Part shown: in pieces, positions 29,293 through 63,858 of the stretch
Position numbering within the stretch: the first letter of the stretch is position 1
How the letters are laid out: every line of letters begins with the position of its first letter
Assembly: GCA_965279565.1 (NCBI GenBank)
Contig: OZ257249.1
Span: 3,644,750 to 3,708,749 of the forward strand
Length of the DNA stretch: 64,000 bases
Direction of reading: 5' to 3'
From: Tagaea sp.
Lineage (GTDB): Bacteria; Pseudomonadota; Alphaproteobacteria; CACIAM-22H2
Translations under genes and position numbers: made by a program
The notes under the pieces: generated by a model
Databases searched by the model: none
What the model saw: only the letters and a program-made list of their open reading frames with translations
Told to the model about the DNA's origin: nothing

Positions 29293-30230
29293 ACGGGGCC
29301 GGCGGCATGCCGCGCCACCAGCAGGCGCTGTTCGGATGCATGGTCCTGTTCCTGGCCATCGCTCCGTTCATCATCTATCCGGTCTTCCTGATGAAGGTGC
29401 TGTGCTTCGCGCTGTTCGCGTGCGCCTTCAACCTGCTCGTCGGTTTCGTCGGCCTGCTGTCGTTCGGCCATGCGATGTTCTTCGGCGGTGCCGCCTATGT
29501 CGCGGCGCACAGCGCGAAGATCTGGGGTTTCCCGTTCGAACTTGCGGTCCTCGCGGGCACCGCGACCGCGGCGATCCTCGGGCTTGCGGTCGGCGCGCTC
29601 GCCATCCGCCGGCAGGGCATCTATTTCTCCATGATCACGCTGGCGCTGGCGCAGATGGTCTACTTCTTCGCGCTGCAGGCGCCGTTCACCGGCGGCGAGG
29701 ACGGTCTGCAGAAAGTGCCGCGCGGCAAGCTGCTCGGGTTCATCAGCCTGCAGAGCGACCTGACGCTCTATTTCGTCGTCGCAGCGATCTTCCTGGCGGC
29801 GTTCCTCGGGATCTACCGCATCGTTCACTCGCCCTTCGGGCAGGTCCTGAAGGCGATCCGCGAGAACGAGCCCCGCGCGATCTCGCTCGGCTACAAGGCC
29901 GACCACTACAAGCTGACGGCTTTCGTCCTGTCGGCAGCGCTCGTGGGCCTCGCCGGGTCGGTAAAGTCGATCGTCTTCCAACTCGCCTCGCTTACCGACG
30001 TGCACTGGACGATGTCGGGCGAAGCCGTGCTGATGACGCTGGTCGGCGGCATGGGAACCATCTTCGGGCCTATTGCCGGCGCGGTCGTGATCATCACGAT
30101 GGAAAACTACCTTGCCGAACTCGGCTCGTGGGTCACCGTCGTGCAGGGCATCGTCTTCGTCGCCTGCGTGCTCGCCTTCCGGCGCGGCATCGTCGGCGAG
30201 ATCGCACGCGTGATCAAGAAACCCCTCTAG
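29289..30230 (+). CDS. Branched-chain ABC permease (LivM-like)
   Basis: GLLSFGHA, TGGEDG, AIRENE and LVGGMGT motifs. Confidence 0.93.
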   Translation: MNGAGGMPRHQQALFGCMVLFLAIAPFIIYPVFLMKVLCFALFACAFNLLVGFVGLLSFGHAMFFGGAAYVAAHSAKIWGFPFELAVLAGTATAAILGLAVGALAIRRQGIYFSMITLALAQMVYFFALQAPFTGGEDGLQKVPRGKLLGFISLQSDLTLYFVVAAIFLAAFLGIYRIVHSPFGQVLKAIRENEPRAISLGYKADHYKLTAFVLSAALVGLAGSVKSIVFQLASLTDVHWTMSGEAVLMTLVGGMGTIFGPIAGAVVIITMENYLAELGSWVTVVQGIVFVACVLAFRRGIVGEIARVIKKPL

Positions 30231-30300
30231 CCGCTTTGTCCGAATCGGGCCGGTCGACTACCCTTCTCCAAAACAAGCAAAACGAGAAGGAGAAGCCGGC

Positions 30301-31590
30301 ATGCTCGAACGTTATTTCGGCCTTACGGCCGCAGGCACGAACGTGCGCACCGAGGTCGTCGCCGGGCTGACGACCTTCCTGACGATGGCTTACATCATCG
30401 TCGTCAATCCTTCGATCCTCGAAATCGCCGGCATGGACCGGAATTCCGTGTTCGTCGCGACCTGCCTTGCGGCGGCGTTCTCGACGGCGATCATGGGGCT
30501 CTATGCCAACTATCCGATCGCGCTGGCTCCCGGAATGGGCCTCAACGCCTTTTTCGCCTTCGGCTTGGTCAAGGGCATGGGCATGTCGTGGGAGACGGCA
30601 CTCGGTGCCGTCTTCTGCTCGTCGGTCCTCACCGTGGCCCTGTCCGTCAGCCCCGCTCGCGCGTGGATCTTCGACGGCATCCCGCGCGCCCTCAAATATG
30701 GGATCGCCGGCGGTATTGGGCTCTTCCTGGCAATCATCGGCCTCAAGAACGCCGGGATCGTCGTGGCGCACCCTGCGACCCTGATCACGCTCGGCGACAT
30801 GCACCAGCCGGCCGCAATCCTCGCCTGCCTCGGCTTCATCGCGATGGTGGCCCTCGAGGCGCGCAAGGTGCCGGGTGCCATCGTCATTGCGATTCTCGGG
30901 ACGACGGCGGTCGGCATCGTTCTCGGCCTCACGCCGTTCCACGGCATCGTCTCGGCTCCACCCTCGCTGGCGCCGACGTTCCTGAAGCTCGACATCTGGG
31001 GCGCGCTGCAGGCCGGCGTCATCTCGACGATCCTCGTCCTGATGTTCGTCGACCTGTTCGATACGGCCGGCACGCTGGTCGGAGTCACCCAGCGCGCCGG
31101 GCTGATGACCAAGGACGGCAAGCTGCCGCGCCTGCGTCAGGCGCTGGTCGCAGATTCGTCGGCATCGCTCGTCGGCTCGCTGCTCGGCACCTCGAACACG
31201 ACCAGCTACATCGAGAGCGCCGCCGGCGTGGAAGCCGGTGGACGGACCGGCCTCGTGGCGCTCGTCGTCGCGGGCCTGTTCCTGCTGGCGATCGTCTTCG
31301 CTCCGCTGGCGAATTCGGTTCCCGGCTTCGCCACCGCACCTGCCCTCATTCTGGTCGCGTGCTACATGACCAAGGGTCTCGTCGATCTCGACTGGTCCGA
31401 CATCACCGAATACGGCCCGGGAATGGTCGCGGCGATCACCATGCCATTCACCTTCTCGATCGCGCACGGCATCGCGCTGGGCTTCATCGCGTACGCCGCC
31501 GTGAAGACGCTTGCCGGGCGCGCCGGTGAGGTTTCGGGAGCGGTCTGGACGATCGCGATCCTGTTCGTGCTGAAATTCGCGTTTCTCTGA
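30301..31590 (+). CDS. NCS2 family AzgA-like guanine/hypoxanthine permease
   Basis: EVVAGLTTFLTMAYI, APGMGLNAFF, FDTAGTL, TTSYIESAAG and GGRTG motifs. Confidence 0.92.
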   Translation: MLERYFGLTAAGTNVRTEVVAGLTTFLTMAYIIVVNPSILEIAGMDRNSVFVATCLAAAFSTAIMGLYANYPIALAPGMGLNAFFAFGLVKGMGMSWETALGAVFCSSVLTVALSVSPARAWIFDGIPRALKYGIAGGIGLFLAIIGLKNAGIVVAHPATLITLGDMHQPAAILACLGFIAMVALEARKVPGAIVIAILGTTAVGIVLGLTPFHGIVSAPPSLAPTFLKLDIWGALQAGVISTILVLMFVDLFDTAGTLVGVTQRAGLMTKDGKLPRLRQALVADSSASLVGSLLGTSNTTSYIESAAGVEAGGRTGLVALVVAGLFLLAIVFAPLANSVPGFATAPALILVACYMTKGLVDLDWSDITEYGPGMVAAITMPFTFSIAHGIALGFIAYAAVKTLAGRAGEVSGAVWTIAILFVLKFAFL

Positions 31591-43263: not shown

Positions 43264-43458
43264 TCGCAAGCTTCGGCGACTTACGCCAGCCAAAGCCCAC
43301 GAAGACCGGAGGTGCCCGCACGACGTGCGAGACACCATTTGAATACGCAAAGAAGTATAGATAACTTCGGATAGCCCTTCCACGCCGATTGGGTCCATTG
43401 CGGCGTGTATTTTCGGCAGTTTGTTGACTTGGATCAAAATCGGATACGGGTTCAGAAC

Positions 43459-44904
43459 ATGACTGCGTCTTTCGCCGAACGTGCCCGTCCGTCCGACGAA
43501 ATCATCGACCGGATCCGCGCCGTCGTCGGCCCGAAAGGCTGGTACTCCGAACCAGCCGACATGGCCCGCTTCGAGAGGGAAGAGCGCGGTCTCTATGTCG
43601 GCAAGGCCGCCCTCGTCGTGCGCCCGGCCTCGACCGACGAGGTCGCCGCGATCCTTCGCATATGCAACCAAGAGCGAATCGCAATTGTCCCTCAAGGTGG
43701 AAACACCGGATTGGTCGGCGGCGGCGTGCCGCACGCGGGCGGCAGCGAGATCGTCCTTTCCCTCGCACGTATGAACCGCATACGCGGATTGGACATCGAA
43801 AACGATACGGTCCTGGCCGATGCCGGCTGCATTCTGGCCGACATCCAGAAGGCAGCCGCGGCGGCCGACCGCTATTTTGCGTTGTCTCTCGGCGCGGAAG
43901 GTACATGCCAAATCGGCGGCAATCTTTCGACGAACGCCGGCGGCAGCAACGTCCTGCGCTTCGGAATGGCGCGCGACCAGGTGCTCGGACTCGAGGTTGT
44001 CCTCGCCGACGGCCGCGTGCTTTCATCGCTGAGCGGCCTGCGGAAGGACAATACGGGTTACGACCTCAAGCAGCTCTTCATGGGGTCGGAAGGCACGCTC
44101 GGCATCATCACGGCCGCCACGCTCAAGCTCCACCCGGCCCCGCGCGAGGTCGAGACCTGCCTGATCGCGCTGCCGACGCCCAAGGCGGTGGTCGAATTGC
44201 TCGGACGCGCCAAGGCCGGCAGCGGCGGCAACTGCATCGCATTCGAATTCACCCAGCGTCGGCTGATCGATTTCGTCCTGAAGCATATTCCCGGCACCTC
44301 CGACCCGTTCGACCGGCCGCACCCATGGTACGTTCTCGCCGAATTCGCCGCCGGCGACATGGGTGGCGCCCTGAAGGGAATGGTCGAGCGGATGCTCGAA
44401 CGCGCGTTCGAAGACGGCCTTGCGCTCGACGCTGTCGTCGCCGCGTCGAGCGCCCAGCGCAAGGCGCTCTGGAAGCTGCGCGAAAGCATGACCGAAGCGC
44501 AGAAGCCGGAAGGCGGATCGATCAAGCACGACGTGTCGGTGCCGGTCTCGGCACTGCCGGCATTCGTCGAGCGGGCAAGCGCGCTTTGCGAGCGCATGGT
44601 TCCCGGCGCCCGCGTGTGCGCATTCGGCCATGCCGGGGATGGCAATATCCACTTCAACGTGAGCCAGCCGGTCGGCAGCGACCGTGCCGCTTTCATGGCT
44701 GGAATGGACGCGATGAACAATTCGGTCCACGAGATCGTCGCCGAAATGAACGGATCGATTTCGGCCGAGCATGGCATCGGCCAGCTCAAGCGCGACAAGC
44801 TTCCGTACTACAAAAGTGCGGTGGCACTCGACATGATGCGGTCGATCAAGCATACGCTCGATCCCAACGGCATCCTCAATCCCGGCAAGGTCCTTCCGGA
44901 CTGA
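43459..44904 (+). CDS. FAD-binding oxidoreductase (D-2-hydroxyacid dehydrogenase, D2HGDH/GlcD-like)
   Basis: PQGGNTGLVGG, TNAGG, KDNTGYDL, HAGDGNIH, SAEHGIG and LNPGK motifs. Confidence 0.92.
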   Translation: MTASFAERARPSDEIIDRIRAVVGPKGWYSEPADMARFEREERGLYVGKAALVVRPASTDEVAAILRICNQERIAIVPQGGNTGLVGGGVPHAGGSEIVLSLARMNRIRGLDIENDTVLADAGCILADIQKAAAAADRYFALSLGAEGTCQIGGNLSTNAGGSNVLRFGMARDQVLGLEVVLADGRVLSSLSGLRKDNTGYDLKQLFMGSEGTLGIITAATLKLHPAPREVETCLIALPTPKAVVELLGRAKAGSGGNCIAFEFTQRRLIDFVLKHIPGTSDPFDRPHPWYVLAEFAAGDMGGALKGMVERMLERAFEDGLALDAVVAASSAQRKALWKLRESMTEAQKPEGGSIKHDVSVPVSALPAFVERASALCERMVPGARVCAFGHAGDGNIHFNVSQPVGSDRAAFMAGMDAMNNSVHEIVAEMNGSISAEHGIGQLKRDKLPYYKSAVALDMMRSIKHTLDPNGILNPGKVLPD

Positions 44905-51838: not shown

Positions 51839-52804
51839 TCAGCCGGCGAGTTTCGTCGGCTTCGTCGACCTGCCGATCGCCGCGAGCTTGCGCTCGAGAC
51901 GCTGCATCAGGCTGTCGAGCTCCTTGTGCTCGTCCGCATCCATCGCGTGGCCCGGTGCGCGCAGATGCGCCGACTTGATGACGCCGCGCCGGCGCAGCAC
52001 TTCCTTGCGCACGGCGAGCCCGAGACCCGGCTGCTGCTCGTGGCGCACGATCGGAAGATAGACGTCGTACAGGTCCTCGGCCTCTTCCGGCTTTCCCTTC
52101 AGGAAGAGATCAACGACCTCGACCAGCATCTCGGGATAGGCAAAGCCCGTATTGGCGCCGTCGGCCCCACGGCGCATCTCCTGCGGCAAATGGAGTGCCG
52201 AATTGCCGACGAGGATCGAGACGCGGCGCTTGCGGCTGCCGTCCGCGTCGGCCTTGCGGACTTTCGTCAGCTTGCGCAGGCCGGGCACGTCCTCGTGCTT
52301 CAGCACCTTCATGCTGTCGTAGCGGGCGAACAGGCGGTTGATCAGCGAGACGGACATGTGCACGTTCGTCAGCTGCGGATAGTCCTGCAGGACGATCGGC
52401 GTGTCGCCGATCTCGCGCACGACGGCATCGTAATAGCCCTCGATCTGCTCTTCGTTCTTGAGCCCGGCGATCGGCGCCACCATCACGCCGGCGGCGCCCA
52501 TGTCCATGACCTTCTTGGTGAAGTTCCCGAGATTCCGGTTGCCGGCCGACGAGACGCCGACGATGACGGGAACCCGGCCGTTCACGCGCTTCATCACGCG
52601 CGATACGAAATCCGAGGATTCCTGGGGACTGAGCTTCGGCGCCTCACCCATCACGCCCAGGATCGTCATGCCGGTCACCCCGCATTCGAGGTAGAAGTCG
52701 GTCATGCGCTCGGCGCTGTCGAGATCGAGCTCGCCATTGTCGGTGAACGGCGTCGCCGCAATGATGTAGACACCCTTTGCGGTTTCGTCGAGCCGTTGCG
52801 CCAT
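51839..52804 (-). CDS. Dihydrodipicolinate synthase family lyase/aldolase
   Basis: ATPF, LGVMGEA, LQDYP and Schiff-base Lys in VLKHED; SD GGAGG before ATG 52804. Confidence 0.87.
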   Translation of the reverse strand: MAQRLDETAKGVYIIAATPFTDNGELDLDSAERMTDFYLECGVTGMTILGVMGEAPKLSPQESSDFVSRVMKRVNGRVPVIVGVSSAGNRNLGNFTKKVMDMGAAGVMVAPIAGLKNEEQIEGYYDAVVREIGDTPIVLQDYPQLTNVHMSVSLINRLFARYDSMKVLKHEDVPGLRKLTKVRKADADGSRKRRVSILVGNSALHLPQEMRRGADGANTGFAYPEMLVEVVDLFLKGKPEEAEDLYDVYLPIVRHEQQPGLGLAVRKEVLRRRGVIKSAHLRAPGHAMDADEHKELDSLMQRLERKLAAIGRSTKPTKLAG

Positions 52805-52886
52805 TTGCTTGTCCTCCGGGCCTGTGGTTTGCAATGCTTCATACCGCGAAGCGCCCCCGCAGCGAAAGGGGCCGGGAGACGTCGAG

Positions 52887-54338
52887 ATGGCAGCCTATGA
52901 CCGGGTGATCCGGGGCGGAAAACTGGCGACTTCGGGCGACTCGTACGTCGCCGACATCGGCATAAAGGGCGGGAAAATCGCGGCGATCGGACACGATCTG
53001 CCGCGCGGCGACGACGAGACCGACGCGCACGGCCGGATCGTCACGCCCGGCGGTATCGACAGCCATGTGCATATCGCACAGGTCTCCGGCATGGGTGTCT
53101 GGACCGCCGACGACTTCGAATCGGGCACGCGCTCGGCGATGTGCGGCGGCACCACGACGACGATCTCGTTCGCCGCCCAGCATCGCGGCCAGTCGCTCCG
53201 CAAGGTGGTCGACGAGTATCACGCGCGCGCGGCGGGCAAGACCTATATCGACTACGCGTTCCACCTTATCGTCTCCGACCCGACCGAACAGGTGCTCGGG
53301 CAGGAACTTCCCGCCCTGATCGCCGATGGGCTGACGTCGTTCAAGATCTATACGACCTACGACGCGCTGAAGCTGTCGGACCGGCAGATCCTCGACATCC
53401 TGGCGCTCGCCCGCCGCCACAACGCGATGACGATGGTCCATTGCGAGAACCACGACGCGATGACCTGGCTCGCGGAGAAGCTGATTGCTTCGGGCCGCAC
53501 GCGCCCCAAATACCACTGCTTCAGCCACAACATGCCGGTTGAGCGCGAGGCGACCCACCGCGTGATCGCGCTTGCCGAGATGCTCGATACGCCCGTGCTG
53601 ATCGTCCACGTGTCCGGGCGCGAGGCGATGGACGAAATCCGCCGTGCGCGCGCCCGCGGCCTGAAGGTCTATGCGGAGACGTGCCCGCAATACCTGTTCC
53701 TGACCCAGGACGATCTCGACAAGTCGGGATTCGACGGCGCCATGTGCATGTGCTCGCCGCCGCCGCGCGACAAGGTCAATCAGGAGTATGTCTGGGCCGG
53801 CCTGCGCGACGGTCTGTTCGATGTCTACTCGTCCGACCATGCGCCCTACCGTTTCGACGACCCGCAGGGAAAAAAGGTCGCGGGCACGAACGCGAACTTC
53901 AAGAAGATCCCCAACGGCGTGCCGGGCCTCGAGATACGCATGCCGCTGCTGTTCGCCGAGGGCGTCCTGAAAGGCCGGCTGTCGCTCGAGCGGTTCGTCG
54001 CGGTCACGGCGACGAACCCCGCCAAAGTCTACGGACTCTATCCGCAGAAAGGCGCCATCGCCGTCGGCGGCGACGCCGATCTCGTGGTCTGGGACCACGA
54101 GCGTGAGCTGACCGTGAGCCAGAGCCTCCTGCACGACGCGATGGATTACACGCCTTACGAAGGCATGAAGGTGAAGGGCTGGGCCGATCTCGTCTTCTCG
54201 CGCGGCGAGCTCGTCGCCAAGGGCGGCAATCCGGTCGCAAAGCCCGGGCGTGGCCGCTATCTTGCACACGGTCCCTCCGAGTGGTCGAAACCGCTCGGCC
54301 GCTCCATCTTCCCCGAAGACATATCGGATATCTTCTGA
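52887..54338 (+). CDS. hydA: Dihydropyrimidinase / D-hydantoinase
   Basis: PGGIDSHVH, GGTTT, SFKIYTTY, VHCEN, IVHVS, ETCPQYL, SSDHAPY and IPNGVPG motifs. Confidence 0.93.
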   Translation: MAAYDRVIRGGKLATSGDSYVADIGIKGGKIAAIGHDLPRGDDETDAHGRIVTPGGIDSHVHIAQVSGMGVWTADDFESGTRSAMCGGTTTTISFAAQHRGQSLRKVVDEYHARAAGKTYIDYAFHLIVSDPTEQVLGQELPALIADGLTSFKIYTTYDALKLSDRQILDILALARRHNAMTMVHCENHDAMTWLAEKLIASGRTRPKYHCFSHNMPVEREATHRVIALAEMLDTPVLIVHVSGREAMDEIRRARARGLKVYAETCPQYLFLTQDDLDKSGFDGAMCMCSPPPRDKVNQEYVWAGLRDGLFDVYSSDHAPYRFDDPQGKKVAGTNANFKKIPNGVPGLEIRMPLLFAEGVLKGRLSLERFVAVTATNPAKVYGLYPQKGAIAVGGDADLVVWDHERELTVSQSLLHDAMDYTPYEGMKVKGWADLVFSRGELVAKGGNPVAKPGRGRYLAHGPSEWSKPLGRSIFPEDISDIF

Positions 54339-55297
54339 TGCCGCCAAAACAGCTCGTTCCCCGTATCGTCAACGTCGGTGCCGCCCAGATGGGCCCGATC
54401 GCGCGCGCCGAAACCCGCGCATCCTGCGTCGAACGGATGATCGCCATGCTGCGGGAAGCGTCTCGCAAGAGCTGTCAGATCGTCGTGTTTCCGGAGCTGG
54501 CGCTGACGACCTTCTTCCCGCGCTGGTTCATGCCGGACTGGCGCGAGGTCGACGCGTTCTTCGAGACCGAGATGCCGAACGCGGCGGTCAAGCCGCTGTT
54601 CGACGAGGCGAAGCGCCTGAAGATCGGATTCTATCTCGGTTATGCCGAGAAGACGCCCGAAGGACGGCGTTTCAACACGGCCATCCTCGTCGACCGCGAG
54701 GGCGCCATCGTCGGCAAGTACCGGAAGATCCATCTTCCTGGCCACGCCGAGAACGAGCCCGAGCGCCCGTTCCAGCATCTGGAAAAGCGCTATTTCGAGC
54801 CCGGCGACATCGGCTTTCCTGTCTGGCGGACGATGGGCGGGATCGTCGGCATGGCCGTGTGCAACGACCGGCGCTGGCCCGAGACCTACCGCGTGATGGG
54901 GCTAAAAGGCATGGAGTTGATGCTGCTCGGCTACAACACGCCGGCCATCAACGGCTGGGCGATGGTCCACTCGGCACCGGAGCCCGAGCATCTGCGCCAG
55001 TTCCACAACCACCTCGTCATGCAGGCCGGCGCCTATCAGAACTCGACCTGGGTCGTCGCTACGGCCAAGGCCGGTATCGAAGAAGGCTGCTCGCTGATTG
55101 GCGGCAGTTGCATCGTGGCGCCCACCGGCGAGATCGTGGCGCTGGCCCGTTCGGTCGCCGACGAGCTTATCGTCGCCGACTGCGACCTCAGCCTCTGCAC
55201 CTACGGCAAGGAAACGACCTTCGCGTTTTCAAAGCACCGGCGGATCGAGCATTACGGATTGATCGCCAGCCAGACGGGCGTCGTCGAGCCGCAATGA
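54338..55297 (+). CDS. N-carbamoyl-D-amino acid amidohydrolase (nitrilase family)
   Basis: VFPELALTTFFPRW, YRKIHLPGH, QHLEKRYFEPGD and CNDRRWPE (Glu-Lys-Cys triad); TGATG-coupled to hydA. Confidence 0.92.
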   Translation: MPPKQLVPRIVNVGAAQMGPIARAETRASCVERMIAMLREASRKSCQIVVFPELALTTFFPRWFMPDWREVDAFFETEMPNAAVKPLFDEAKRLKIGFYLGYAEKTPEGRRFNTAILVDREGAIVGKYRKIHLPGHAENEPERPFQHLEKRYFEPGDIGFPVWRTMGGIVGMAVCNDRRWPETYRVMGLKGMELMLLGYNTPAINGWAMVHSAPEPEHLRQFHNHLVMQAGAYQNSTWVVATAKAGIEEGCSLIGGSCIVAPTGEIVALARSVADELIVADCDLSLCTYGKETTFAFSKHRRIEHYGLIASQTGVVEPQ

Positions 55298-55929
55298 AAG
55301 ACTATGACTTCGCAGAAACGTCCCCGTCCGTCCGATACAAGCTGCTGGTCGGTTCGGTCGTGCCCCGGCCAATCGCGCTGGTCACCACGCTCGACGAGGC
55401 CGGCATCGTCAACGCCGCTCCGTTCTCGTTCTTCAACGTCCTGAGCCACGATCCCGCCATCGTGGCACTGGGTGTCGAGCGCCGCGCCGACGGGCGCCCG
55501 AAGGACACGGTGCGGAACATCGAGACGTCCGGCGAGTTCGTCGTCAACCTCGTCGACGAGGCGATGGGACCCGGCATGAATGTCTGCGGCGCGGATTTCG
55601 AACCGGGCATCGACGAACTTGAGCTTGCCGGATTCACGCCCGCACCGTCGACCAAGGTGAAGGCCCCGCGCATCGCCGAGGCACCCGTGGCACTCGAATG
55701 CCGGCTGCGCCACGACGTCCGTCTTGGCGACGACAACAAGCGCGCGATCCTGCTCGGCGAAGTCGTGGCGTTCTCGATCCGGGACGATCTCGTCGATCCG
55801 GCCAGCGACCGCGTCCATACCGACCGCCTGAACCTGCTCGGACGCCTTGCCGGCGGTGGCTATGTGCGCCTGACCGACCGGCTGGAAATCCCGCGCGTCA
55901 CGCCCGAGACTCTCGGCCGCAAGGCGTAG
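55294..55929 (+). CDS. Flavin reductase-like (FMN-binding split barrel) protein
   Basis: VVPRPIALV, NAAPFSFFN, KDTVRNI...GEFVVN and GRLAGGGY motifs; ATGA overlap. Confidence 0.88.
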   Translation: MKDYDFAETSPSVRYKLLVGSVVPRPIALVTTLDEAGIVNAAPFSFFNVLSHDPAIVALGVERRADGRPKDTVRNIETSGEFVVNLVDEAMGPGMNVCGADFEPGIDELELAGFTPAPSTKVKAPRIAEAPVALECRLRHDVRLGDDNKRAILLGEVVAFSIRDDLVDPASDRVHTDRLNLLGRLAGGGYVRLTDRLEIPRVTPETLGRKA

Positions 55930-55932
55930 CCG

Positions 55933-56592
55933 CTACCAGCCGATCTGCACGCGCGCGATGGCCATGCCGACCGCCGCCTGCGTCGGCTCGACGACCGGAA
56001 TTCCGACCGCCTCCTGGAGACGGTCGCGGTAGCGCGCCATGCCAGCACAGCCCATGACCAGCACGTCGGCGCCGTCGCGTTCGCGCAGATCGCGCCCGAC
56101 TTCGATCATCCGCGCCAGCGTGCGCGCGTCGTCCGAAAGCTCGGCGACCGTCAGCCCGACCGGCCGGTCGCCCGCGAACCGCGCCTCGAGCCCGCGCGCA
56201 CCGACATAGCGCAGATGGCGCGGCACGGAACGCGGCAGGATCGCAATGATCCCGAAGCGCTCGCCCAGCGTCAGTGCCGTCAGCATCCCGCATTCGGCGA
56301 TGCCGAGAACCGGCTTCTTGGTCGCCTCGCGTGCGGCATAGAGCCCGGGATCGCTGAAGCAGGCGATCACGAACGCGTCGCAGTCATTGTCCCGGGTCGC
56401 GACGGTCCGGCTCAGCGGGCCGACGACGCTTTCCACATGCGCCTGCGTCTCGATGCCCGGCGGGCCTTCGGCAAGCGTCGTGCACTCGATCTCGGGACCG
56501 CCGGCCGTGCGCATCGGCGCAACGGCTGCATCGATGCCGGCCGTCACGCTCCGGTTCGAGTTCGGATTGACCACGAGGATGCGCTTGCCCAT
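55933..56592 (-). CDS. Hydantoin racemase (Asp/Glu/hydantoin racemase family)
   Basis: VVNPNS, IACFSDPG and MGCAGM (two catalytic Cys), PVVEPT. Confidence 0.9.
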   Translation of the reverse strand: MGKRILVVNPNSNRSVTAGIDAAVAPMRTAGGPEIECTTLAEGPPGIETQAHVESVVGPLSRTVATRDNDCDAFVIACFSDPGLYAAREATKKPVLGIAECGMLTALTLGERFGIIAILPRSVPRHLRYVGARGLEARFAGDRPVGLTVAELSDDARTLARMIEVGRDLRERDGADVLVMGCAGMARYRDRLQEAVGIPVVEPTQAAVGMAIARVQIGW

Positions 56593-56603
56593 CTGTCCAG
56601 CTC

Positions 56604-57275
56604 CTAGCGGGATGCCACGTGCCTGTGCTCCAGCCGCGACAGGAACCGCACGGCCGGCCACAGCAGTACCAGATAGATCAGGGCCGCCGCCACGATCGGC
56701 GTCGGATTGTAGACCAGCGACTGGGCGAGGCGTGCCGTGTGCAGGAGTTCGCCCAGCGCCACGACCGACGCGATCGTCGTCAGTTTGATGACTTCCAGCG
56801 TATTCCCGATCAGATCGGGCAGCACGTTCCGGGTTGCTTGCGGAAGGATCACGTCGCGCATCGTCTGGAAGCTCGAAAGCCCCGTCGAACGCGCGGCTTC
56901 CCATTGCCCGCGCGGCACGCTCTCGATCCCTGCGCGGAAGATCTCGCCGTAGTAGCTCGACGCATTGAGCAGGAAGGCGATCGTCACGGCCGCGAACGCC
57001 GGCAGGTCGATCCCGACGAACGGCAGCCCGAAATAGATGAAGATCAGCAGCACGAGCGGCGGAAACGCGCGGAAGAAATCGACATAGACGACGAGCAGCA
57101 CGTTGAGCCAACGCCGCCGCAGGCTCCAAAGCCACGCGACGGCAAGGCCGCCGGCAAGCCCCGCGGGAATCGTGATGAGGCAGAGCACCACGGTCATGCC
57201 CAGCCCTTCGAGCATGAAGGGCAGCACGCGGATCAGAATATCGACATTGAAGAACGTCTCGAGGATCTGGTCCAT
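56604..57275 (-). CDS. Polar amino acid ABC permease
   Basis: FFRAFPPLV and EAA loop EIFRAGIESVPRGQWEAARSTG. Confidence 0.92.
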   Translation of the reverse strand: MDQILETFFNVDILIRVLPFMLEGLGMTVVLCLITIPAGLAGGLAVAWLWSLRRRWLNVLLVVYVDFFRAFPPLVLLIFIYFGLPFVGIDLPAFAAVTIAFLLNASSYYGEIFRAGIESVPRGQWEAARSTGLSSFQTMRDVILPQATRNVLPDLIGNTLEVIKLTTIASVVALGELLHTARLAQSLVYNPTPIVAAALIYLVLLWPAVRFLSRLEHRHVASR

Positions 57276-57280
57276 GCCGG

Positions 57281-57964
57281 TCACCGCTTCCACGCGAAGC
57301 GCGTCTCGATCCAGCGCCCGAAGACCACGACCGGAATGAAGATCACGAGGTAGGCCGCGGCACCGAGCGTCAGCGGCGTGGGATTGCCCGCGAGGCTGGC
57401 CGCCGAGCTCGCCTGGCTGACGATTTCGGAGAGTGCCACGACCGAGCCGAGTGCCGTCCCCTTCGTCACCGCGATGACCCGGTTGACCAGCGGCGGGATG
57501 GTCATCCGGACGGCCTGCGGCAGCACGACCCAGCCGAGCGTCGCGGCGAAGCCGAGCCCGGTCGAGCGGGCGGCCTCCCACTGTCCCTTGGGCACGGCGA
57601 GGATGCCGGCCCACCAGATCTCCTCCGCGAATGCGGCGAGCACGAGCGACAGCGACAGCCATGTCGCCGTAAACGCGCTCATCGGCAGATCGATATACGG
57701 GAACGCAAAGAACAGGATGATGATGACGACGAGCGGCGGCAGCGCACGCAGCATGTCGACGAACACCACGATCGCCACGTTCAGCGAAGCTATCCGGAAC
57801 GCGCGCAGGCTCGCCAGCAGCAGGCCGAGCGTCAGCCCGGTCGCGACGACCGCGAGCGAGACCAGACATGTCACCCAGACGCCGTCGATGATCCGCGGCG
57901 CCCATTCCGCCGCCACCGCCGGATTGAAATAGGCGAAAACGAGGCGGTTCAGCCCGTCGTCCAT
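57281..57964 (-). CDS. Polar amino acid ABC permease
   Basis: LRALPPLV and EEIWWAGILAVPKGQWEAARSTG. Confidence 0.92.
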   Translation of the reverse strand: MDDGLNRLVFAYFNPAVAAEWAPRIIDGVWVTCLVSLAVVATGLTLGLLLASLRAFRIASLNVAIVVFVDMLRALPPLVVIIILFFAFPYIDLPMSAFTATWLSLSLVLAAFAEEIWWAGILAVPKGQWEAARSTGLGFAATLGWVVLPQAVRMTIPPLVNRVIAVTKGTALGSVVALSEIVSQASSAASLAGNPTPLTLGAAAYLVIFIPVVVFGRWIETRFAWKR

Positions 57965-57968
57965 CGGT

Positions 57969-58724
57969 TCAGCCGTGGCCGCCGACGAGGCGCGCGACGA
58001 ATTCCCGCGTGCGCGCTTCACGGGGGCGCCCGAATATCTGGTCGGGCGGCCCCTGCTCGATGATCCGGCCGCCTTCCATGAAGATGACCCTGTCGGCCGC
58101 GGCACGCGCGAACGCCAGCTCATGGCTGACGACCACCATCGTCATTCCGGCCGCCTTGAGTGCCCGCATCACCGCAAGCACCGAGCCGACGAGTTCGGGA
58201 TCGAGCGCCGATGTCGGCTCGTCGAAAAGGACGATCTTCGGGTCGAGCGCCAGCGCCCGAGCGATCCCGACGCGCTGCTGCTGGCCGCCGGAAAGCTCGT
58301 TTGGATACGCCCCCGCCTTGTCCGACAGTCCGACCTGGTCGAGGGCCGCAAGTCCTCGCGCCTCGGCGGCACCGCGCGTCAGTCCCTGCACCCGGCGCAG
58401 AGCTAGCGTCACGTTCCCGAGCGCCGTCATGTGCGGATAGAGATTGAAGGACTGGAACACCATGCCGACCTTCTGCCGGACCTTGTTCAAGTCCGTTCCG
58501 GTGGCGACGATGTCCTGCCCGTCGACGATGACGGCACCGGAGTCCGGTTCCTCGAGGCGGTTGCAGCAGCGCAGCAGCGTGCTCTTGCCCGATCCCGACG
58601 GACCGATCACGAACACGAGTTCGCGCGGCCGCACGGCCAGATCGATCCCGTCGAGGACCTTCAGCGGACCGTAGCTCTTGTGGAGTGCGACAAGCTCGAG
58701 AATGGGCGGAGACTGATCGGGCAT
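57969..58724 (-). CDS. Polar amino acid ABC ATP-binding protein
   Basis: GPSGSGKST, LSGGQQQRV, FDEPTSALD and SHE motifs. Confidence 0.94.
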   Translation of the reverse strand: MPDQSPPILELVALHKSYGPLKVLDGIDLAVRPRELVFVIGPSGSGKSTLLRCCNRLEEPDSGAVIVDGQDIVATGTDLNKVRQKVGMVFQSFNLYPHMTALGNVTLALRRVQGLTRGAAEARGLAALDQVGLSDKAGAYPNELSGGQQQRVGIARALALDPKIVLFDEPTSALDPELVGSVLAVMRALKAAGMTMVVVSHELAFARAAADRVIFMEGGRIIEQGPPDQIFGRPREARTREFVARLVGGHG

Positions 58725-58743
58725 CAATTTCCGCCCCGCATCC

Positions 58744-59589
58744 TCAGCGGCAGACGATCGCAACCGGCGTCTCGTCGTAGCCCGGCATGCCCGCGACGCC
58801 ATGGCCGGCCGCGATGTTGACGGTTACGGAATCGGGCGCCGGATCGTAGCCGAACCACTTCTTGTGCAGCCGCGCGAAGGCGCCGTCCTGCTTCATGCAC
58901 TTGACGACCATCGAGATTCGATCGCGGCCGGCCTTGTCGTCCGGACGGAACGGGATCGCCCAGACAAGGCCCGTCGAGATTTTGTAGCCGAGGCGCAACT
59001 GCTGGGCGTTCTGCTTGACCGCCCATGCAGCGACCGTGTTTCCGGTCAGGTTCGAATCCGCACGGCTCGCGAGAACGGCCTGCACGGCTTCCGGGTTCGA
59101 TCCGTAGACGTCGTAGGTGAACCCGTAGCGCGACGCGTTCGCCTGCGCCCAGCTCTCGTAGGCCGAACCGCGGTTGACGGAGACCTTCTTGCCGCGAAGG
59201 TCCTCGAGGACCTTGATCTCGGGCTGGTTGCGCCGCGTGACGAACTGGAAATCCGTGTTGAGATAGCCTTCGGTGAAAAGCAGGTTCCGCGCCCGCTCTT
59301 CGGTCACCGTCGTGGGGGCCGCGAGGAAATCGAAGCGCTTCGCGAGCAGGCCCGGCACGAGCCCCGAGAACTCCTGCGCCACGACCTCGATCGGCCGGCC
59401 GAGGCGCTTGCCGATCTCGTTGGCCATGTCGACATTGAAGCCTTCGATGCCGCCGCCGAGCTTCGGCATGGCGTGCGGCGCGAACGTGCCGTCGAGACCC
59501 GCGACGAGTTTCTGCGCCGATGCGGGCGCGCCGACGACGACCGAAAGCAGGACCGCGATCGCGGCCGCGGACATCTTGTTCATTGCCAT
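58744..59589 (-). CDS. Polar amino acid ABC substrate-binding protein (family 3)
   Basis: Signal peptide, DGTFAPHA, GFNVDMA and TVTEERA motifs. Confidence 0.92.
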   Translation of the reverse strand: MAMNKMSAAAIAVLLSVVVGAPASAQKLVAGLDGTFAPHAMPKLGGGIEGFNVDMANEIGKRLGRPIEVVAQEFSGLVPGLLAKRFDFLAAPTTVTEERARNLLFTEGYLNTDFQFVTRRNQPEIKVLEDLRGKKVSVNRGSAYESWAQANASRYGFTYDVYGSNPEAVQAVLASRADSNLTGNTVAAWAVKQNAQQLRLGYKISTGLVWAIPFRPDDKAGRDRISMVVKCMKQDGAFARLHKKWFGYDPAPDSVTVNIAAGHGVAGMPGYDETPVAIVCR

Positions 59590-59668: not shown

Positions 59669-59684
59669 AGCAAACGGCGTGCCT
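59669..59684 (-). promoter_or_regulatory. Candidate sigma54 -24/-12 promoter for the ABC-racemase operon
   Basis: Minus strand AGGCACGCCGTTTGCT matches GG-N10-GC with GGCACG and TTGC cores. Confidence 0.6.
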
Positions 59685-60315
59685 ACTTCGTGCCGAAAAG
59701 CCGGTCGCCGGCGTCGCCGAGGCCCGGGATGATGTAGCCGTGGTCGTTCAGGTGGCTGTCCTGGGCGGCCGCATAGATCGTCACGTCCGGATGGTTCGCG
59801 TGCATCTCCTTGACGCCTTCCGGAGCGGCAAGCAGGCAGACATACTTGATCGACGTGGCGCCCGCCTGCTTGACCCGCGTGACGGCCGCGACGGCGGAAT
59901 GCCCCGTCGCAAGCATCGGGTCGAGCACGAGCACATCGCGTTCGGCCACGTCCTCGGGAAGCTTGCAGTAATACTCGACCGCCGCCAGCGTCTGCGGATC
60001 GCGGTAAAGCCCGATATGGCCCACGCGCGCCGAGGGAAGGATCTCCAGCATGCCATCGAGGATGCCGTTGCCGGCGCGCAGGACGGAAACGAGGCAGATC
60101 TCTTTGCCCGCAAGAGTCGGTGCGCGCATCTTCTGGATCGGCGTCTCGATCTCGACCGTGGTCAGTGTCCGGTCGCGCGTCGCCTCGTAGGCCAGAAGCA
60201 TCGCGATCTCGCGCACGAGCCGGCGAAAATCGCGCGTCTCCGTCTCCTTGCGGCGAAGCTGGGTCAGCTTGTGCTGGATAAGCGGATGACCAACCACATG
60301 CAGCGAACCCGACAT
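59683..60315 (-). CDS. upp: Uracil phosphoribosyltransferase
   Basis: [33 protein letters not shown] and [17 protein letters not shown] motifs. Confidence 0.97.
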
Positions 60316-60331
60316 TGCCCCACTCCCCCGG

Positions 60332-61558
60332 CTAGAAGATCGTCCCGTCGCTCTCGACCGCCAGCGGCGGCTTTCCACCCGCACGCCGCTCTGCGGCGAT
60401 GCGTCGGCCGGCCGTCCAGGTCCCGCCCTGCAGCACCTTCGCGAGCGGGAACTCCTCGGCCGACATCCCGAGCTTCTCGCGCACGAGATCGGCTACCCGA
60501 TCGAGCAGCACGACGGTAAGCGCCCGCCATTCGACGATCAACTCGCTGTTGGCGGCATAGGCCCGGCCGGCGGCCGTCGGGTCGCGAAGCGCCACGGTGC
60601 CCGTATCGAGGAACAGGCCGCCGTTGCGGTATTCCGGCAACCCAGTCAGTGCGTCCAACTCGACGATCTCGAGACCGAGCGATTCCAGCGGCTCGAGCAG
60701 CGAATAGGTCAGCCACTGGCTGAGCTTGTGGAAGGGAACCAGCCCCTCACCCGCCGCCGGATGCTCGCCGACATCGCCGACATTCACGCCGTCGATGACG
60801 ACGCGTGCCGGCCAAGCGTCCGCAAGACCGTCGAGCAGCACGGCAAGGATGCGTGCTGCCGGCAGCTTGCCGTCGCGCGCCTGCCCGAGCAGCAGATCGG
60901 CAAGGTTCCCGATGCGCGGCTGCGCGCCGAAAAGGTCCGGTCGCTTGCCGATCGCGGTCCCGAGACTGCGCATGAGTGCCGCGCGCCCTTCGAGACCGAC
61001 CAACTTGTTGCTCTCGCCGACCTTGAAGCCCTTGGCGAGCCGATCGCCGTCGAAGCGGCGCAGGCCGGCCGTGTCGGCCCGGTACGGGTTGTCGAACGAC
61101 GCCGAGAAGGCGCCGGACGCGAACATGTCGAAGCTGGCGACGGCCAGCCCCTCCGATCGCGTGAAGACGCCGTCCTTGGTGCGGTACTTCCAGTCGGATC
61201 CGGCTCCGGCGTCGAGCAGCACGCTCGTCACAGCAAGATCGATCGCGACGCGTGCGCGCTCGAGCTTGTCGTCGGGCAGGTTGGCGACGAGGCGCTTCCA
61301 GCGGTCGATGCCGCCGACATGGAAGTGGCGCCAGCGCGAATGGTACGGAATGTCGAGCGACGGATAGTCGCGCCGTATCGAACTGACGGTCAATTCCGCC
61401 GCCCGGTCGAGCTTGGCGAGATCGACGGTGAAGTGGGCCGACTTGCCGCGCGAAGCCGCCTCGAAGATCTCGCCGGAACGGCGGCGGATCGTGGCGGGAT
61501 CGCGAAGCAGGCGCACGCGCGCGCTGGGCCCGGCGATTTCTGGACGATCGAGGGGCAT
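60332..61558 (-). CDS. URC4/Urg3 family protein (DUF1688)
   Basis: [52 protein letters not shown] and VLQGGTW motifs. Confidence 0.88.
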
Positions 61559-61559
61559 G

Positions 61560-62852
61560 TCAGCTATCGAGCCCGCGGCCCTTGGTGTCGGCCAGCTTGC
61601 GCGCGTCGGGAAGCGTACCGCCGGTGAAATAGCCCGCGGCCTTTTTCGCTTCCATCTCGACGCTCGCATCCGCAGGCACGAGGCCTTCTGGAATCTCGAC
61701 CTGCTCGACGATTTCGATGCCGCTGCGCACGAGCGCCTCAGACTTCATGTTGCTCATCGACGCGAAACGGTCGATACGCGAAATTCCCAGCCAATGGATC
61801 ACGTCGGGCATCAACTCCTGAAAACGCATGTCCTGTACGCCGGCGACGCACTCGGTCCGCTTGAAATACGTGGCGGCCTGGTCGCCGCCCTCCTGGCGCT
61901 TGCGCGCGTTGTAGACGAGGAACTTGGTGACTTCGCCAAGTGCCCGGCCTTCCTTGCGATTGTAGACGATGAAGCCCACGCCGCCCTGCTGGGCCGTCTC
62001 GATCGCCACCTCGATGCCGTGCGCCAGATACGGCCGGCACGTGCAGATGTCCGATCCGAACACGTCCGAACCGTTGCATTCGTCGTGGACGCGGCCGCCG
62101 ATCTTGGTCTTCGCGTCGCCGAGCTTCGACACGTCGCCGAAAAGATAGACGGTCGTGCCGCCGATCGGCGGCAGGAACACCTTCATGTCGGGGCGCGTGA
62201 CGAGTTCGGGGAACATGCCGCCGGTGTATTCGAACAGGCCGCTGCGAAGCTCGGTTTCGGCGATGCCGAAGCGCTTGGCAATTCCGGGCAGATACCAGAC
62301 GGGCTCGAGCGCCACTTTCGTCGTGCGCACGTCGCCGTTCGCCTCGACGATCCGGCCGTCCGGCTTCAACCGGCCCGCCGCGATCGCATCCTGCAGTTCG
62401 GGCATGTTGATGTGCGCGCGGGTCACCGCGATCGTCGGACGAATGTCATAGCCTTGCGCGAGCAGGCCACTGAAAACGTCGCCCACCATGTGCCCGTACG
62501 GATCGAGGCTGACGATCTTCTCCGGATCGGACCACTGGGCGAACGGCCCGATCGGTTCGGCGGGTGCGGTATTCGTCAGGTCGGGCTTGTGCAGGGGCGA
62601 GAGCGCGCCGGCGGCGACCGCGAGCGCGCGGTACAGCATGTAGCTGCCCGAATGGGTGCCGATGACGTTGCGGTGCTGCGGATTGCCCACGGTGCCGATG
62701 ACGGGCCCGCGCGCCTGCGCGCCACCGGCCCCCCATTCGATCTTGAGAGGCTGCGGCCCGCTCTTGGACGGGTGCGAAGTCAGGACGATGTGCTTGGCGG
62801 ACTTTGGCGGCTCGGCCGCGAACTTCGTCGCGGACGTGTCCGGGGAAGGCAT
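61560..62852 (-). CDS. URC1/Urg1-like GTP cyclohydrolase II family protein with N-terminal extension
   Basis: RGPVIGT, HSGSY, RVHDECNGSDVFGSDICTC (Zn ligands), RKEGRALGEVTK, QDMRFQ and SMSNMK motifs. Confidence 0.9.
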   Translation of the reverse strand: MPSPDTSATKFAAEPPKSAKHIVLTSHPSKSGPQPLKIEWGAGGAQARGPVIGTVGNPQHRNVIGTHSGSYMLYRALAVAAGALSPLHKPDLTNTAPAEPIGPFAQWSDPEKIVSLDPYGHMVGDVFSGLLAQGYDIRPTIAVTRAHINMPELQDAIAAGRLKPDGRIVEANGDVRTTKVALEPVWYLPGIAKRFGIAETELRSGLFEYTGGMFPELVTRPDMKVFLPPIGGTTVYLFGDVSKLGDAKTKIGGRVHDECNGSDVFGSDICTCRPYLAHGIEVAIETAQQGGVGFIVYNRKEGRALGEVTKFLVYNARKRQEGGDQAATYFKRTECVAGVQDMRFQELMPDVIHWLGISRIDRFASMSNMKSEALVRSGIEIVEQVEIPEGLVPADASVEMEAKKAAGYFTGGTLPDARKLADTKGRGLDS

Positions 62853-62934: not shown

Positions 62935-63858
62935 CTAACTCGTAGACCGGGTATCGGAAGTGCCCTGAACCGCCATCGTCCCGGATCGCCCGTCGATGCC
63001 TCCCTGGATCAGATCGGCGACGGGAACGGGTCGGCCTGCCAGCGCCTTCGCCTCGTCCGCCAGATTGACGAAGCGCACGCCGCGCGCGGCGGCGGCGTCC
63101 AGAAACCGGGTGAACCAGTCAGCATAGTGCATGCCCTCGAGCTCGGCATGTCCGGTGAATGCGTTGAGCGCGCCGGGAACAAGCCGGTCGAGATAGATGT
63201 CGATCAGCCGGTCCTCCGGGAATTCCGGGCGGCCGAGCAATTCGTCCAGCGTCGGTAGCGTCGTCGGCATCTGGAGCGTGCGGAAAAGACGGCTGCCGAC
63301 GCGCGGCATGAACGGTCCTGTTCCGCGCGCGTCCGATGCGTAGTCGAGGCCGGCCTCGTCGTAGACCTCCAGGCTCTTGGCATCGGCCTGCCAGCCGGCG
63401 GCACCGGCCGTGCGCGCGGGCGAACCGAAAACGCGCTCGTAGGCGGCGCGCGCCTTGGCAAAGTCGGTGCGGACGGCGTCGATCGTCATGCCGGCCAGTC
63501 CGTCCTGCCAGCGCACATGATCCCAGCAATGGATGCCGGTCTCGTGGCCGGCATTCGAGATCGCGCGCATCGCGTCGGCGTTCCGCCTGCCGATGTCGGG
63601 ACCTGGCAGCAGCACGCCGTTCATAAGCGTGCGCAAGCCATAGAGCTTCACGACGCTTGTGCGGCTGACCTTGGCGAAGAAACCGGGCCGGAAAACCCGC
63701 CGGATCGCGCGCCCGGTATTGTCCGGCCCCAGCGAGAACAGGAACGTGCCGCGGATCGCATGGCGGTCGAGCGACCGGGCCAGTGGTGACAGCCCCTCGC
63801 GCGTCCCGCGATCGGTATCGACATCGATCTTGATCGCGAGCCGGGCGGGTTCGGCCAT
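62935..63858 (-). CDS. arnD: ArnD-like polysaccharide deacetylase/deformylase
   Basis: KIDVDTDRGTREG, FLFSLGPDNTGRA, HCWDHVRWQD, PTTLPTLDE and HAELEG motifs. Confidence 0.8.
   Translation of the reverse strand: MAEPARLAIKIDVDTDRGTREGLSPLARSLDRHAIRGTFLFSLGPDNTGRAIRRVFRPGFFAKVSRTSVVKLYGLRTLMNGVLLPGPDIGRRNADAMRAISNAGHETGIHCWDHVRWQDGLAGMTIDAVRTDFAKARAAYERVFGSPARTAGAAGWQADAKSLEVYDEAGLDYASDARGTGPFMPRVGSRLFRTLQMPTTLPTLDELLGRPEFPEDRLIDIYLDRLVPGALNAFTGHAELEGMHYADWFTRFLDAAAARGVRFVNLADEAKALAGRPVPVADLIQGGIDGRSGTMAVQGTSDTRSTS

Follow-up and report, generated by a model that had tools for sequence, protein, structure and literature searches.

Gene content of the locus

The stretch of Tagaea sp. DNA analysed here (64,000 nucleotides of contig OZ257249.1, hereafter the window) contains nine adjacent genes that are predicted to encode a D-hydantoinase (hydA), an N-carbamoyl-D-amino-acid hydrolase (DCase), a hydantoin-type racemase, a DHDPS-like protein, a flavin-binding protein and the four components of an ABC importer, including its periplasmic solute-binding protein (SBP) (Table 1). 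Genes were identified by their matches in Pfam and NCBIfam, by GC content at third positions and by the context of the start codons; the G+C content of the region is about 66%. Its close relatives mark the genome as Tagaea-like, within the Rhodospirillales. Hydantoinase, carbamoylase, racemase and transporter genes all lie inside 7.8 kb, which makes the locus a member of the known class of hydantoin-utilisation (hyu) clusters. A first-pass annotation of this DNA had placed and described the nine genes correctly on every point, as judged from family matches well beyond chance and from reading the gene junctions. Its title, a complete hydantoinase-process gene set, is right about the gene content, but the cluster is of a known kind and its novelty is narrower than the title implied.

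Table 1. Features of the nine-gene cluster and the adjoining operon, in window positions
Feature	Position	Strand	Basis or remark
DHDPS-family gene	51839-52804	-	PF00701; start ATG at 52804 with GGAGGA ribosome-binding site
Divergent intergenic spacer, 82 bp, DHDPS-like gene/hydA	52805-52886		sequence read
hydA, D-hydantoinase/dihydropyrimidinase	52887-54338	+	NF009941, TIGR02033
DCase, N-carbamoyl-D-amino-acid hydrolase	54338-55297	+	PF00795, PDB 6LEI, 1FO6
Flavin_Reduct FMN-protein, NbaA/3BPK-like subfamily	55294-55929	+	PF01613
Hydantoin-type racemase, Asp/Glu/hydantoin racemase family	55933-56592	-	PF01177
ABC permease 2, BPD_transp_1	56604-57275	-	PF00528, 90.9 bits
ABC permease 1, BPD_transp_1	57281-57964	-	PF00528, 57.9 bits
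ABC ATPase	57969-58724	-	PF00005, 120 bits
SBP_bac_3 periplasmic solute-binding protein, polar-amino-acid type	58744-59589	-	PF00497, 100 bits
URC operon (URC1-like GTP-cyclohydrolase-II homologue, DUF1688/URC4, upp) and preceding ArnD-like polysaccharide deacetylase gene	59683-62852, 62935-63858	-	

The hydA stop codon overlaps the DCase start by 1 nt (TGATG), and DCase overlaps the flavin gene by 4 nt (ATGA). The flavin and racemase genes converge with their stop codons 3 nt apart (55927-55935), which leaves no space for terminators between them, so that transcripts from the opposite strands must overlap or collide. The 82-bp divergent spacer is presumably the site of both promoters; a promoter scan found no sigma-70 consensus in it. 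Upstream, the nine genes are flanked by dinB and a pentapeptide-repeat gene. At the other end, a spacer of 93 bp separates the SBP gene from upp, which closes a URC1-URC4-upp operon upstream of it on the same strand; the first-pass annotation omitted this neighbour.

Catalytic residues of the core enzymes

The catalytic residues of the cluster enzymes are all present. The hydA product scores 761.5 bits against NF009941 (cut-off 647) and 551 bits against TIGR02033 (cut-off 393), and its nearest solved proteins are D-hydantoinases (PDB 1NFG, 416 bits). It retains every residue of what we take to be the binuclear metal site, given the motif positions in solved D-hydantoinases: H60/H62 (DSHVH), K153 (FKIY), H185, H241 and D317 (SDH), and Y158 is present too. 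At E<1e-20 it is the sole copy in the genome. Two candidate substrates were set aside at this stage. Allantoin is unsupported, since in the comparison with solved proteins hydA stands near the D-hydantoinases and far from the allantoinases; hydantoin-5-propionate is likewise unsupported, as the ErtD models score far under their cut-off.

DCase matches PF00795 with 185 bits and the solved N-carbamoyl-D-amino-acid hydrolases with 421 bits (PDB 6LEI) and 383 bits (1FO6), compared with only 50-85 bits for other CN-hydrolases, including those of the beta-ureidopropionase type. Its Glu53, Lys130 and Cys175 (CNDRRW) and the pair Arg178-Arg179 are invariant in nine orthologues; the Arg-Arg pair is presumably the binder of the substrate carboxylate. 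DCase is thus predicted to be a carbamoylase of the alpha-D type. The racemase scores 190 bits against PF01177, and its likeness to solved allantoin and hydantoin racemases is modest (PDB 3QVJ, 101 bits; 5LFD, 75 bits). Its two catalytic cysteines, Cys78 and Cys182, are invariant in 27 orthologues.

A binding protein without the alpha-ammonium aspartate

The SBP carries a signal peptide (MAMNKMSAAAIAVLLSVVVGAPASA) and reaches no NCBIfam equivalog cut-off. We aligned it with HMMER to E. coli GlnBP (1GGG/1WDN), AncQR and the Thermus LAO-binding protein. The GlnBP positions D10, F13, F50, T70 and the carboxylate-binding R75 are identical in the SBP, and three others are replaced: D157 by Gly, K115 by Asn and H156 by Thr. 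From the structures of GlnBP and HisJ/LAOBP, we take D157 to be the residue that forms a salt bridge with the alpha-ammonium group of the ligand. The protein therefore has the fold and the Arg of the GlnH/HisJ/ArgT-type SBPs and lacks their alpha-ammonium Asp. The same pattern is found in 16 cluster-linked SBPs (45-100% identity, Acidobacterial ones included), where the Arg is kept in 16 of 16 and the D157 position holds Gly or Ala in 16 of 16.

Retention of the Arg together with the change of Asp to Gly or Ala suggests a ligand that is acidic and has no free amine. The cargo is thus probably not an ordinary amino acid, and a hydantoin whose side chain is acidic or polar, or an N-carbamoyl amino acid, would probably fit the predicted pocket. 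The first-pass annotation had named an importer for ordinary L-amino acids as one finding that would undo its catabolic interpretation, and the missing alpha-amino-binding residue speaks against such an importer.

Other hyu loci use another transporter. In a different layout found in Kiloniellaceae and the Roseobacter group (L039, L043, L047 and L056), a TRAP transporter (DctP/Q/M) is placed between DCase and hydA. TRAP transporters are a class that carries carboxylates. These loci also add LysR, a PALP enzyme, an aminotransferase, a racemase and a D-2-hydroxyacid dehydrogenase, with an SDR in L039.

The DHDPS-like protein and the flavoprotein

The DHDPS-like protein matches PF00701 with 115 bits and TIGR00674 with 101.7 bits. 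The latter score falls below the cut-off of 206, and a true dapA (334 bits) lies elsewhere in the genome, so that an identity as the DapA of the lysine pathway is excluded; the gene ranks seventh among the 12 DHDPS-family matches in the genome. Its closest PDB entry is the uncharacterised 3DZ1 (258 bits), followed by L-2-keto-3-deoxyarabonate dehydratase (3FKK, 7C0C), whose Schiff-base Lys, like that of 3DZ1, aligns with Lys169 of the DHDPS-like protein even though the overall match to the dehydratase is only about 100 bits. Lys169 does not vary among 18 orthologues. We accordingly place the protein in a 3DZ1-like subfamily as a predicted Schiff-base lyase or dehydratase.

Members of this subfamily also occur outside hyu loci. 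One such neighbourhood, that of homologues with about 49% identity, follows a sugar-acid logic, with an IlvD/EDD dehydratase, an SDR and a 2-hydroxyacid dehydrogenase; a second contains an aldehyde dehydrogenase; and a third combines a gene for an ATP-dependent HyuA-type (Hydantoinase_A) hydantoinase/oxoprolinase with a TRAP binding protein.

The flavoprotein scores 98.7 bits against PF01613. Its nearest PDB entries are 4Z85, the FMN-dependent 2-nitrobenzoate nitroreductase NbaA (154 bits), and 3BPK (137 bits). We considered whether it might be the reductase component of a two-component flavin-dependent monooxygenase and rejected this, as there is no oxygenase gene in the cluster or in the related loci L082-L087. 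The order DCase-to-flavin recurs in L004, L007-L010, L020, L021, L070, L082, L083, L086 and L087, with the two genes overlapping or at near-zero spacing. A predicted complex of DCase with the flavoprotein scored 0.06 against a mark of 0.32, which speaks neither for binding nor against it, and look-ups in the ESM Atlas returned generic family names only.

Co-conservation of the nine genes

Gene neighbourhoods were compared in 80 loci around DCase homologues (one genome per species), onto which all window proteins were mapped by tblastn. Separately, the flavin, DCase, DHDPS-like and SBP proteins were searched in an evenly drawn sample of 300 Alphaproteobacteria, and the loci where they coincided were fetched. 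In this sample the DHDPS-like, flavin and SBP genes adjoin DCase far above chance. An SBP homologue stands beside DCase in 8 of the 16 other genomes that carry one, and a DHDPS-like homologue belongs to a DCase locus in 5 of 19, counts that are not independent because related genomes share labels.

Four loci (L082-L085) from three other alphaproteobacterial families contain the set either complete or with one gene missing, and in an order that differs from that in Tagaea. In two genomes of one family (G074 and G244), DHDPS, hydA, DCase and flavin genes are co-directional in this order, with the racemase gene and an SBP-ATPase-permease-permease set alongside. G271, of a second family, has all nine genes with an FAD-linked oxidase and an SDR inserted. 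G001, of a third family, has eight of the nine: SBP, ATPase, two permeases, DCase and DHDPS are followed at some remove by hydA and the racemase, together with LysR and a DAO-family oxidase. Partial sets are found in G129 (hydA-DCase-flavin-racemase) and in G211 (flavin-DCase-permease-permease-ATPase-SBP, where the contig end is reached). That the order varies speaks for selection on which genes are present, not for synteny passed down by descent.

The hyu arrangement is conserved in other phyla too. In four Acidobacterial loci, hydA-DCase converges on the racemase gene. The importer is complete in three of them (L066, L069 and L076), and the fourth is cut short by the end of its contig; the importer genes follow the racemase gene in the order permease-permease-ATPase-SBP. 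A plasmid of the betaproteobacterium Comamonas antarctica groups a racemase, LysR, an SDR, hydA, four ABC genes, a DHDPS-like gene and an FAD oxidoreductase without DCase, and a Sulfitobacter plasmid has a parallel set of amidohydrolase, racemase, DHDPS-like protein, SDR, CN-hydrolase and FAD oxidoreductase. The DHDPS-hydA-DCase core is also present in Desertibaculum subflavum, which is cultured. Genes that join the set in relatives encode DAO or FAD-linked oxidases, SDRs and 2-hydroxyacid dehydrogenases. In a quick DCase tree (SH-aLRT only, unrooted in effect), the clusters that carry accessory genes are spread over three or more separate clades. The first-pass annotation had proposed co-conservation of the accessory genes as a check, and this check is passed: DHDPS-like, flavin and SBP genes recur with DCase in several families.

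We further note a third, unrelated DCase context, an operon on plasmids pMM593 of Martelella mediterranea (L103) and pAvCG78a of Agrobacterium vitis (L104), with another type of ABC system, an XRE regulator, an adenine-deaminase-like protein and an alanine racemase. Since this context differs, it has no bearing on the nine-gene set.

Probable repeated gene loss at the Tagaea site

The site between dinB and upp was compared among close relatives whose DCase is 87-98% identical (L002-L010, L020, L021 and L089). Six gene-content states occur there, all with clean boundaries. The full set is found in the window and in L007-L010, and up to the contig ends in L020 and L021. L002 lacks the flavin gene and the importer, L003 has DHDPS-hydA-DCase only, and L004 has DCase, the flavin gene, the racemase gene and the importer without the DHDPS-like gene and hydA. 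DCase is the only gene of the set in L005 and L006, and the DHDPS-like gene the only one in the sister genus G167. No gene fragments or pseudogene remnants were found at the deletion sites.

In a quick tree, full sets are present in all three Tagaea DCase subclades. This points to an ancestral full module with piecemeal and repeated loss as the likeliest history of the site. Such loss in Tagaea also indicates that the module is dispensable.

Three of the contigs in this comparison come from metagenome-assembled genomes labelled Telmatospirillum (L007), Asaia bogorensis (L010) and Azospirillum (L021). Their DCase identity of 87-93% and full Tagaea synteny make the taxonomic labels of these bins look unreliable.

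A proposed catabolic module

We consider it likely that these genes work together as a single conserved catabolic module of hyu type, with a route of six steps. The SBP would first capture a ligand with an acidic or carboxylate group but lacking a free alpha-amino group, for which the best candidates are 5-substituted hydantoins whose side chain is polar or acidic, or the N-carbamoyl forms that arise when their ring opens, and the ABC system would import it. The two-cysteine racemase would then interconvert the hydantoin enantiomers, the metal-dependent D-hydantoinase would open the ring, and the Glu-Lys-Cys D-carbamoylase would yield the D-amino acid with ammonia and CO2. In a fifth step the D-amino acid would be converted to a 2-oxo acid, which the DAO or FAD-linked oxidases in the clusters of relatives could accomplish and which here is presumably encoded elsewhere. 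Finally, the DHDPS-like Schiff-base enzyme may cleave or dehydrate the 2-oxo acid, which would imply a hydroxylated or otherwise functionalised side chain, and the flavoprotein may provide a redox step, reducing either a reactive aldehyde product or an unsaturated precursor ring. If the flavoprotein acted first, this would mirror the roles of dihydropyrimidine dehydrogenase (DPD) in the pyrimidine route and of YgfK in the reductive urate route (PMC12507026).

Steps one to four are predicted from family membership and intact catalytic residues, and steps five and six are suggested by co-conservation only. The idea of a single catabolic route that takes in the accessory genes was already put forward in the first-pass annotation and gains support from co-conservation and from the predicted binding signature of the SBP.

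Several observations weigh against this six-step module. The cluster has no gene for an enzyme that would turn the D-amino acid into a 2-oxo acid, and more than 280 kb separates it from the closest full-length gene of the DAO family. An oxygenase partner for the PF01613 flavoprotein is missing from the cluster and from L082-L087. There is no regulator gene inside the nine-gene cluster, and a scan of 51.5-63.2 kb detected 0 promoters, with terminator-like sites at the chance level (7, where 6.7 were expected), and so does not speak to where operons begin or end. The proposed SBP ligand depends on the GlnBP alignment and on residue roles taken from the literature. Moreover, Tagaea relatives have only parts of the set (DCase alone, DHDPS alone, or DCase and importer without hydA), and this separate persistence of parts tempers any claim of strict interdependence.

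An FAD-linked oxidase of the GlcD/D-2-hydroxyacid dehydrogenase type at window positions 43405-44904 (+) was considered as a further member, being 50% identical to the oxidase in the G271 cluster. It was not counted in the module because it lies 7 kb off behind unrelated genes, namely those for an acyl-CoA dehydrogenase, a spermidine synthase, a dehydrogenase, a pentapeptide protein and dinB.

A bolder version of the module is, in our view, doubtful. In that version the nine genes would suffice by themselves for the whole route from a natural hydantoin whose side chain is acidic or hydroxylated, with a new 3DZ1-like lyase or dehydratase for the 2-oxo acid derived from the D-amino acid, a new dedicated reductase in the NbaA-like flavoprotein and the first SBP of the polar-amino-acid family specific for hydantoins or ureido acids. 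If it were true, the identity of the SBP ligand would show the physiological role of D-hydantoinase/D-carbamoylase pairs.

Alternative readings of the cluster

The locus could instead be centred on DCase as a scavenging system, in which the importer takes up N-carbamoyl-D-amino acids or ureido acids (arising, for example, from cyanate carbamoylation or from purine or pyrimidine ring opening) and the hydantoinase and racemase serve cyclised side forms. We regard this as unlikely, although several features agree with it. DCase is kept in every Tagaea variant and is all that remains in L005 and L006; at L004, where the locus has no hydA, DCase is combined with flavin gene, racemase gene and importer; in L087, whose contig stops just past the SBP gene, flavin gene, DCase and importer stand together; and the carboxylate-binding Arg is kept in the SBP. 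A second DCase paralogue in the genome, found with an M20 peptidase, a PALP enzyme and a RidA-like protein, resembles a system for ureido-diaminopropionate breakdown, and such a set accords with the ureido intermediates that occur naturally in the reductive urate pathway (PMC12507026). In most complete loci, however, hydA and the racemase gene are co-conserved with DCase and the importer. The Comamonas variant goes further in having hydA, racemase, importer and DHDPS-like gene without DCase, and a racemase would be pointless for an open-chain substrate that the D-specific amidase already selects.

A role in pyrimidine catabolism together with the URC operon appears very unlikely. Here hydA would act as dihydropyrimidinase, DCase would substitute for beta-ureidopropionase and the flavoprotein would replace dihydropyrimidine dehydrogenase. 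This would account for the placement of the SBP gene behind upp on the same strand as URC1-URC4-upp and for the scores of hydA against the NCBIfam 'dihydropyrimidinase' models, and flavin-dependent ring reduction does open known cyclic-ureide routes. Yet the URC adjacency is confined to Tagaea-type loci, with none in other DCase loci or in L082-L087; DCase scores about 420 bits against alpha-specific D-carbamoylases and only about 50-80 against CN-hydrolases of the beta-ureidopropionase type; and the racemase would have no role for dihydrouracil. The whole genome holds one full gene of the DHO_dh family, far from the window, and this genome-wide DHO_dh search found no dihydropyrimidine dehydrogenase such as the Pyd pathway uses. 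The sole DHO_dh-like signal within the window is sub-threshold and falls inside a nitronate-monooxygenase gene, so that the earlier remark that the window has no dihydropyrimidine dehydrogenase holds. Taken together, the Tagaea-only adjacency, the single DHO_dh gene, the single hydantoinase, the alpha-D type of DCase and the racemase argue that this is not canonical pyrimidine catabolism.

It is highly improbable that the hyu core is real and the DHDPS-like and flavin genes are unrelated neighbours: both families are common in non-hyu contexts, G167 keeps the DHDPS-like gene alone at the site and the Acidobacterial clusters have neither gene, but both stand beside DCase in several families with varied orders and orientations, the flavin gene is translationally coupled to DCase and follows it in most loci that have both, and DHDPS-hydA-DCase is kept throughout the Tagaea/Desertibaculum clade.

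Relation to known systems

D-hydantoinase, D-carbamoylase and hydantoin racemase are industrial enzymes, and hyu clusters of several kinds have been described. The L-selective cluster of Arthrobacter aurescens DSM 3747 is reportedly arranged as hyuP-hyuA-hyuH-hyuC, with an NCS1-type permease and an M20-family L-carbamoylase. The Tagaea cluster follows the same permease-racemase-hydantoinase-carbamoylase logic and differs in its ABC importer and its CN-hydrolase D-carbamoylase. The hyu cluster of Agrobacterium sp. IP I-671 is said to include an ORF for a putative NAD(P)H-flavin oxidoreductase. In the literature searched we found no description of a hyu cluster with a DHDPS-like or flavin-reductase gene, of the Asp-less SBP signature, of a cross-family recurrence of the nine genes or of a natural substrate for such a cluster, an absence that is not proof.

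The closest likeness is to the D-selective hyu clusters of rhizobia and agrobacteria (hyuH/hydA, hyuC and hyuA), which have the same three enzyme families, are transporter-linked and keep hydA and DCase adjacent; in rhizobia, a dihydropyrimidinase gene is flanked by ABC transporter genes (PMC3546935). Compared with these clusters, the Tagaea set has a co-conserved DHDPS-like lyase and PF01613 flavoprotein, and its importer is an ABC system of the polar-amino-acid type whose SBP lacks the alpha-ammonium Asp.

The reductive uric-acid pathway of E. coli and C. difficile (XdhD, YgfK, SsnA, HyuA, YgeW/UacY, YgeY and YgeX) gave a natural role to E. coli HyuA in 2025, when this D-stereospecific hydantoinase was found to open 5-ureidomethyl-hydantoin (PMC12507026). 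That pathway likewise places flavin-dependent reduction before ring opening and removal of the ureido groups after it. In contrast, the Tagaea cluster lacks XdhD, YgfK, SsnA, a carbamoyltransferase and a diaminopropionate ammonia-lyase, and the organism is an aerobic-type alphaproteobacterium. We use the pathway as a lead for candidate substrates only. With the reductive pyrimidine pathway (PydA/DPD, PydB and PydC) the cluster shares the enzyme family of PydB and hydA; it differs in its alpha-D amidase, its racemase and importer, and in that no DPD was found.

Little is known of what D-hydantoinases, D-carbamoylases and hydantoin racemases act on naturally in bacteria of soil and water (PMC3546935). 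The nine-gene set offers three conserved handles on this question: a soluble SBP that can be screened, a predicted Schiff-base lyase and a flavoprotein, the latter two of which would mark the exit from the pathway or possibly its entry. Cultured carriers exist (Desertibaculum subflavum for the core, Comamonas antarctica for the plasmid variant), so the question is testable with ordinary biochemistry and genetics. The value of the cluster is that it makes the natural-substrate question testable in this way, beginning with the SBP.

Other features of the window and genome

The 93-bp spacer between upp and the SBP gene shows no significant structure when folded (z = -0.47). A nucleobase permease gene (Xan_ur_permease) is present at window positions 30214-31590 (+), about 30 kb from the URC operon.

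The genome also contains a second ureide-type cluster (L090; G000:C1:4014000-4024500), about 310 kb downstream of the window. It comprises genes for an amidohydrolase (477 aa), an Asp/Glu/hydantoin racemase, an EamA transporter, a RidA/YjgF-like protein, a DCase paralogue (61% identical), an M20 peptidase, a PALP enzyme and a D-serine-dehydratase-like protein.

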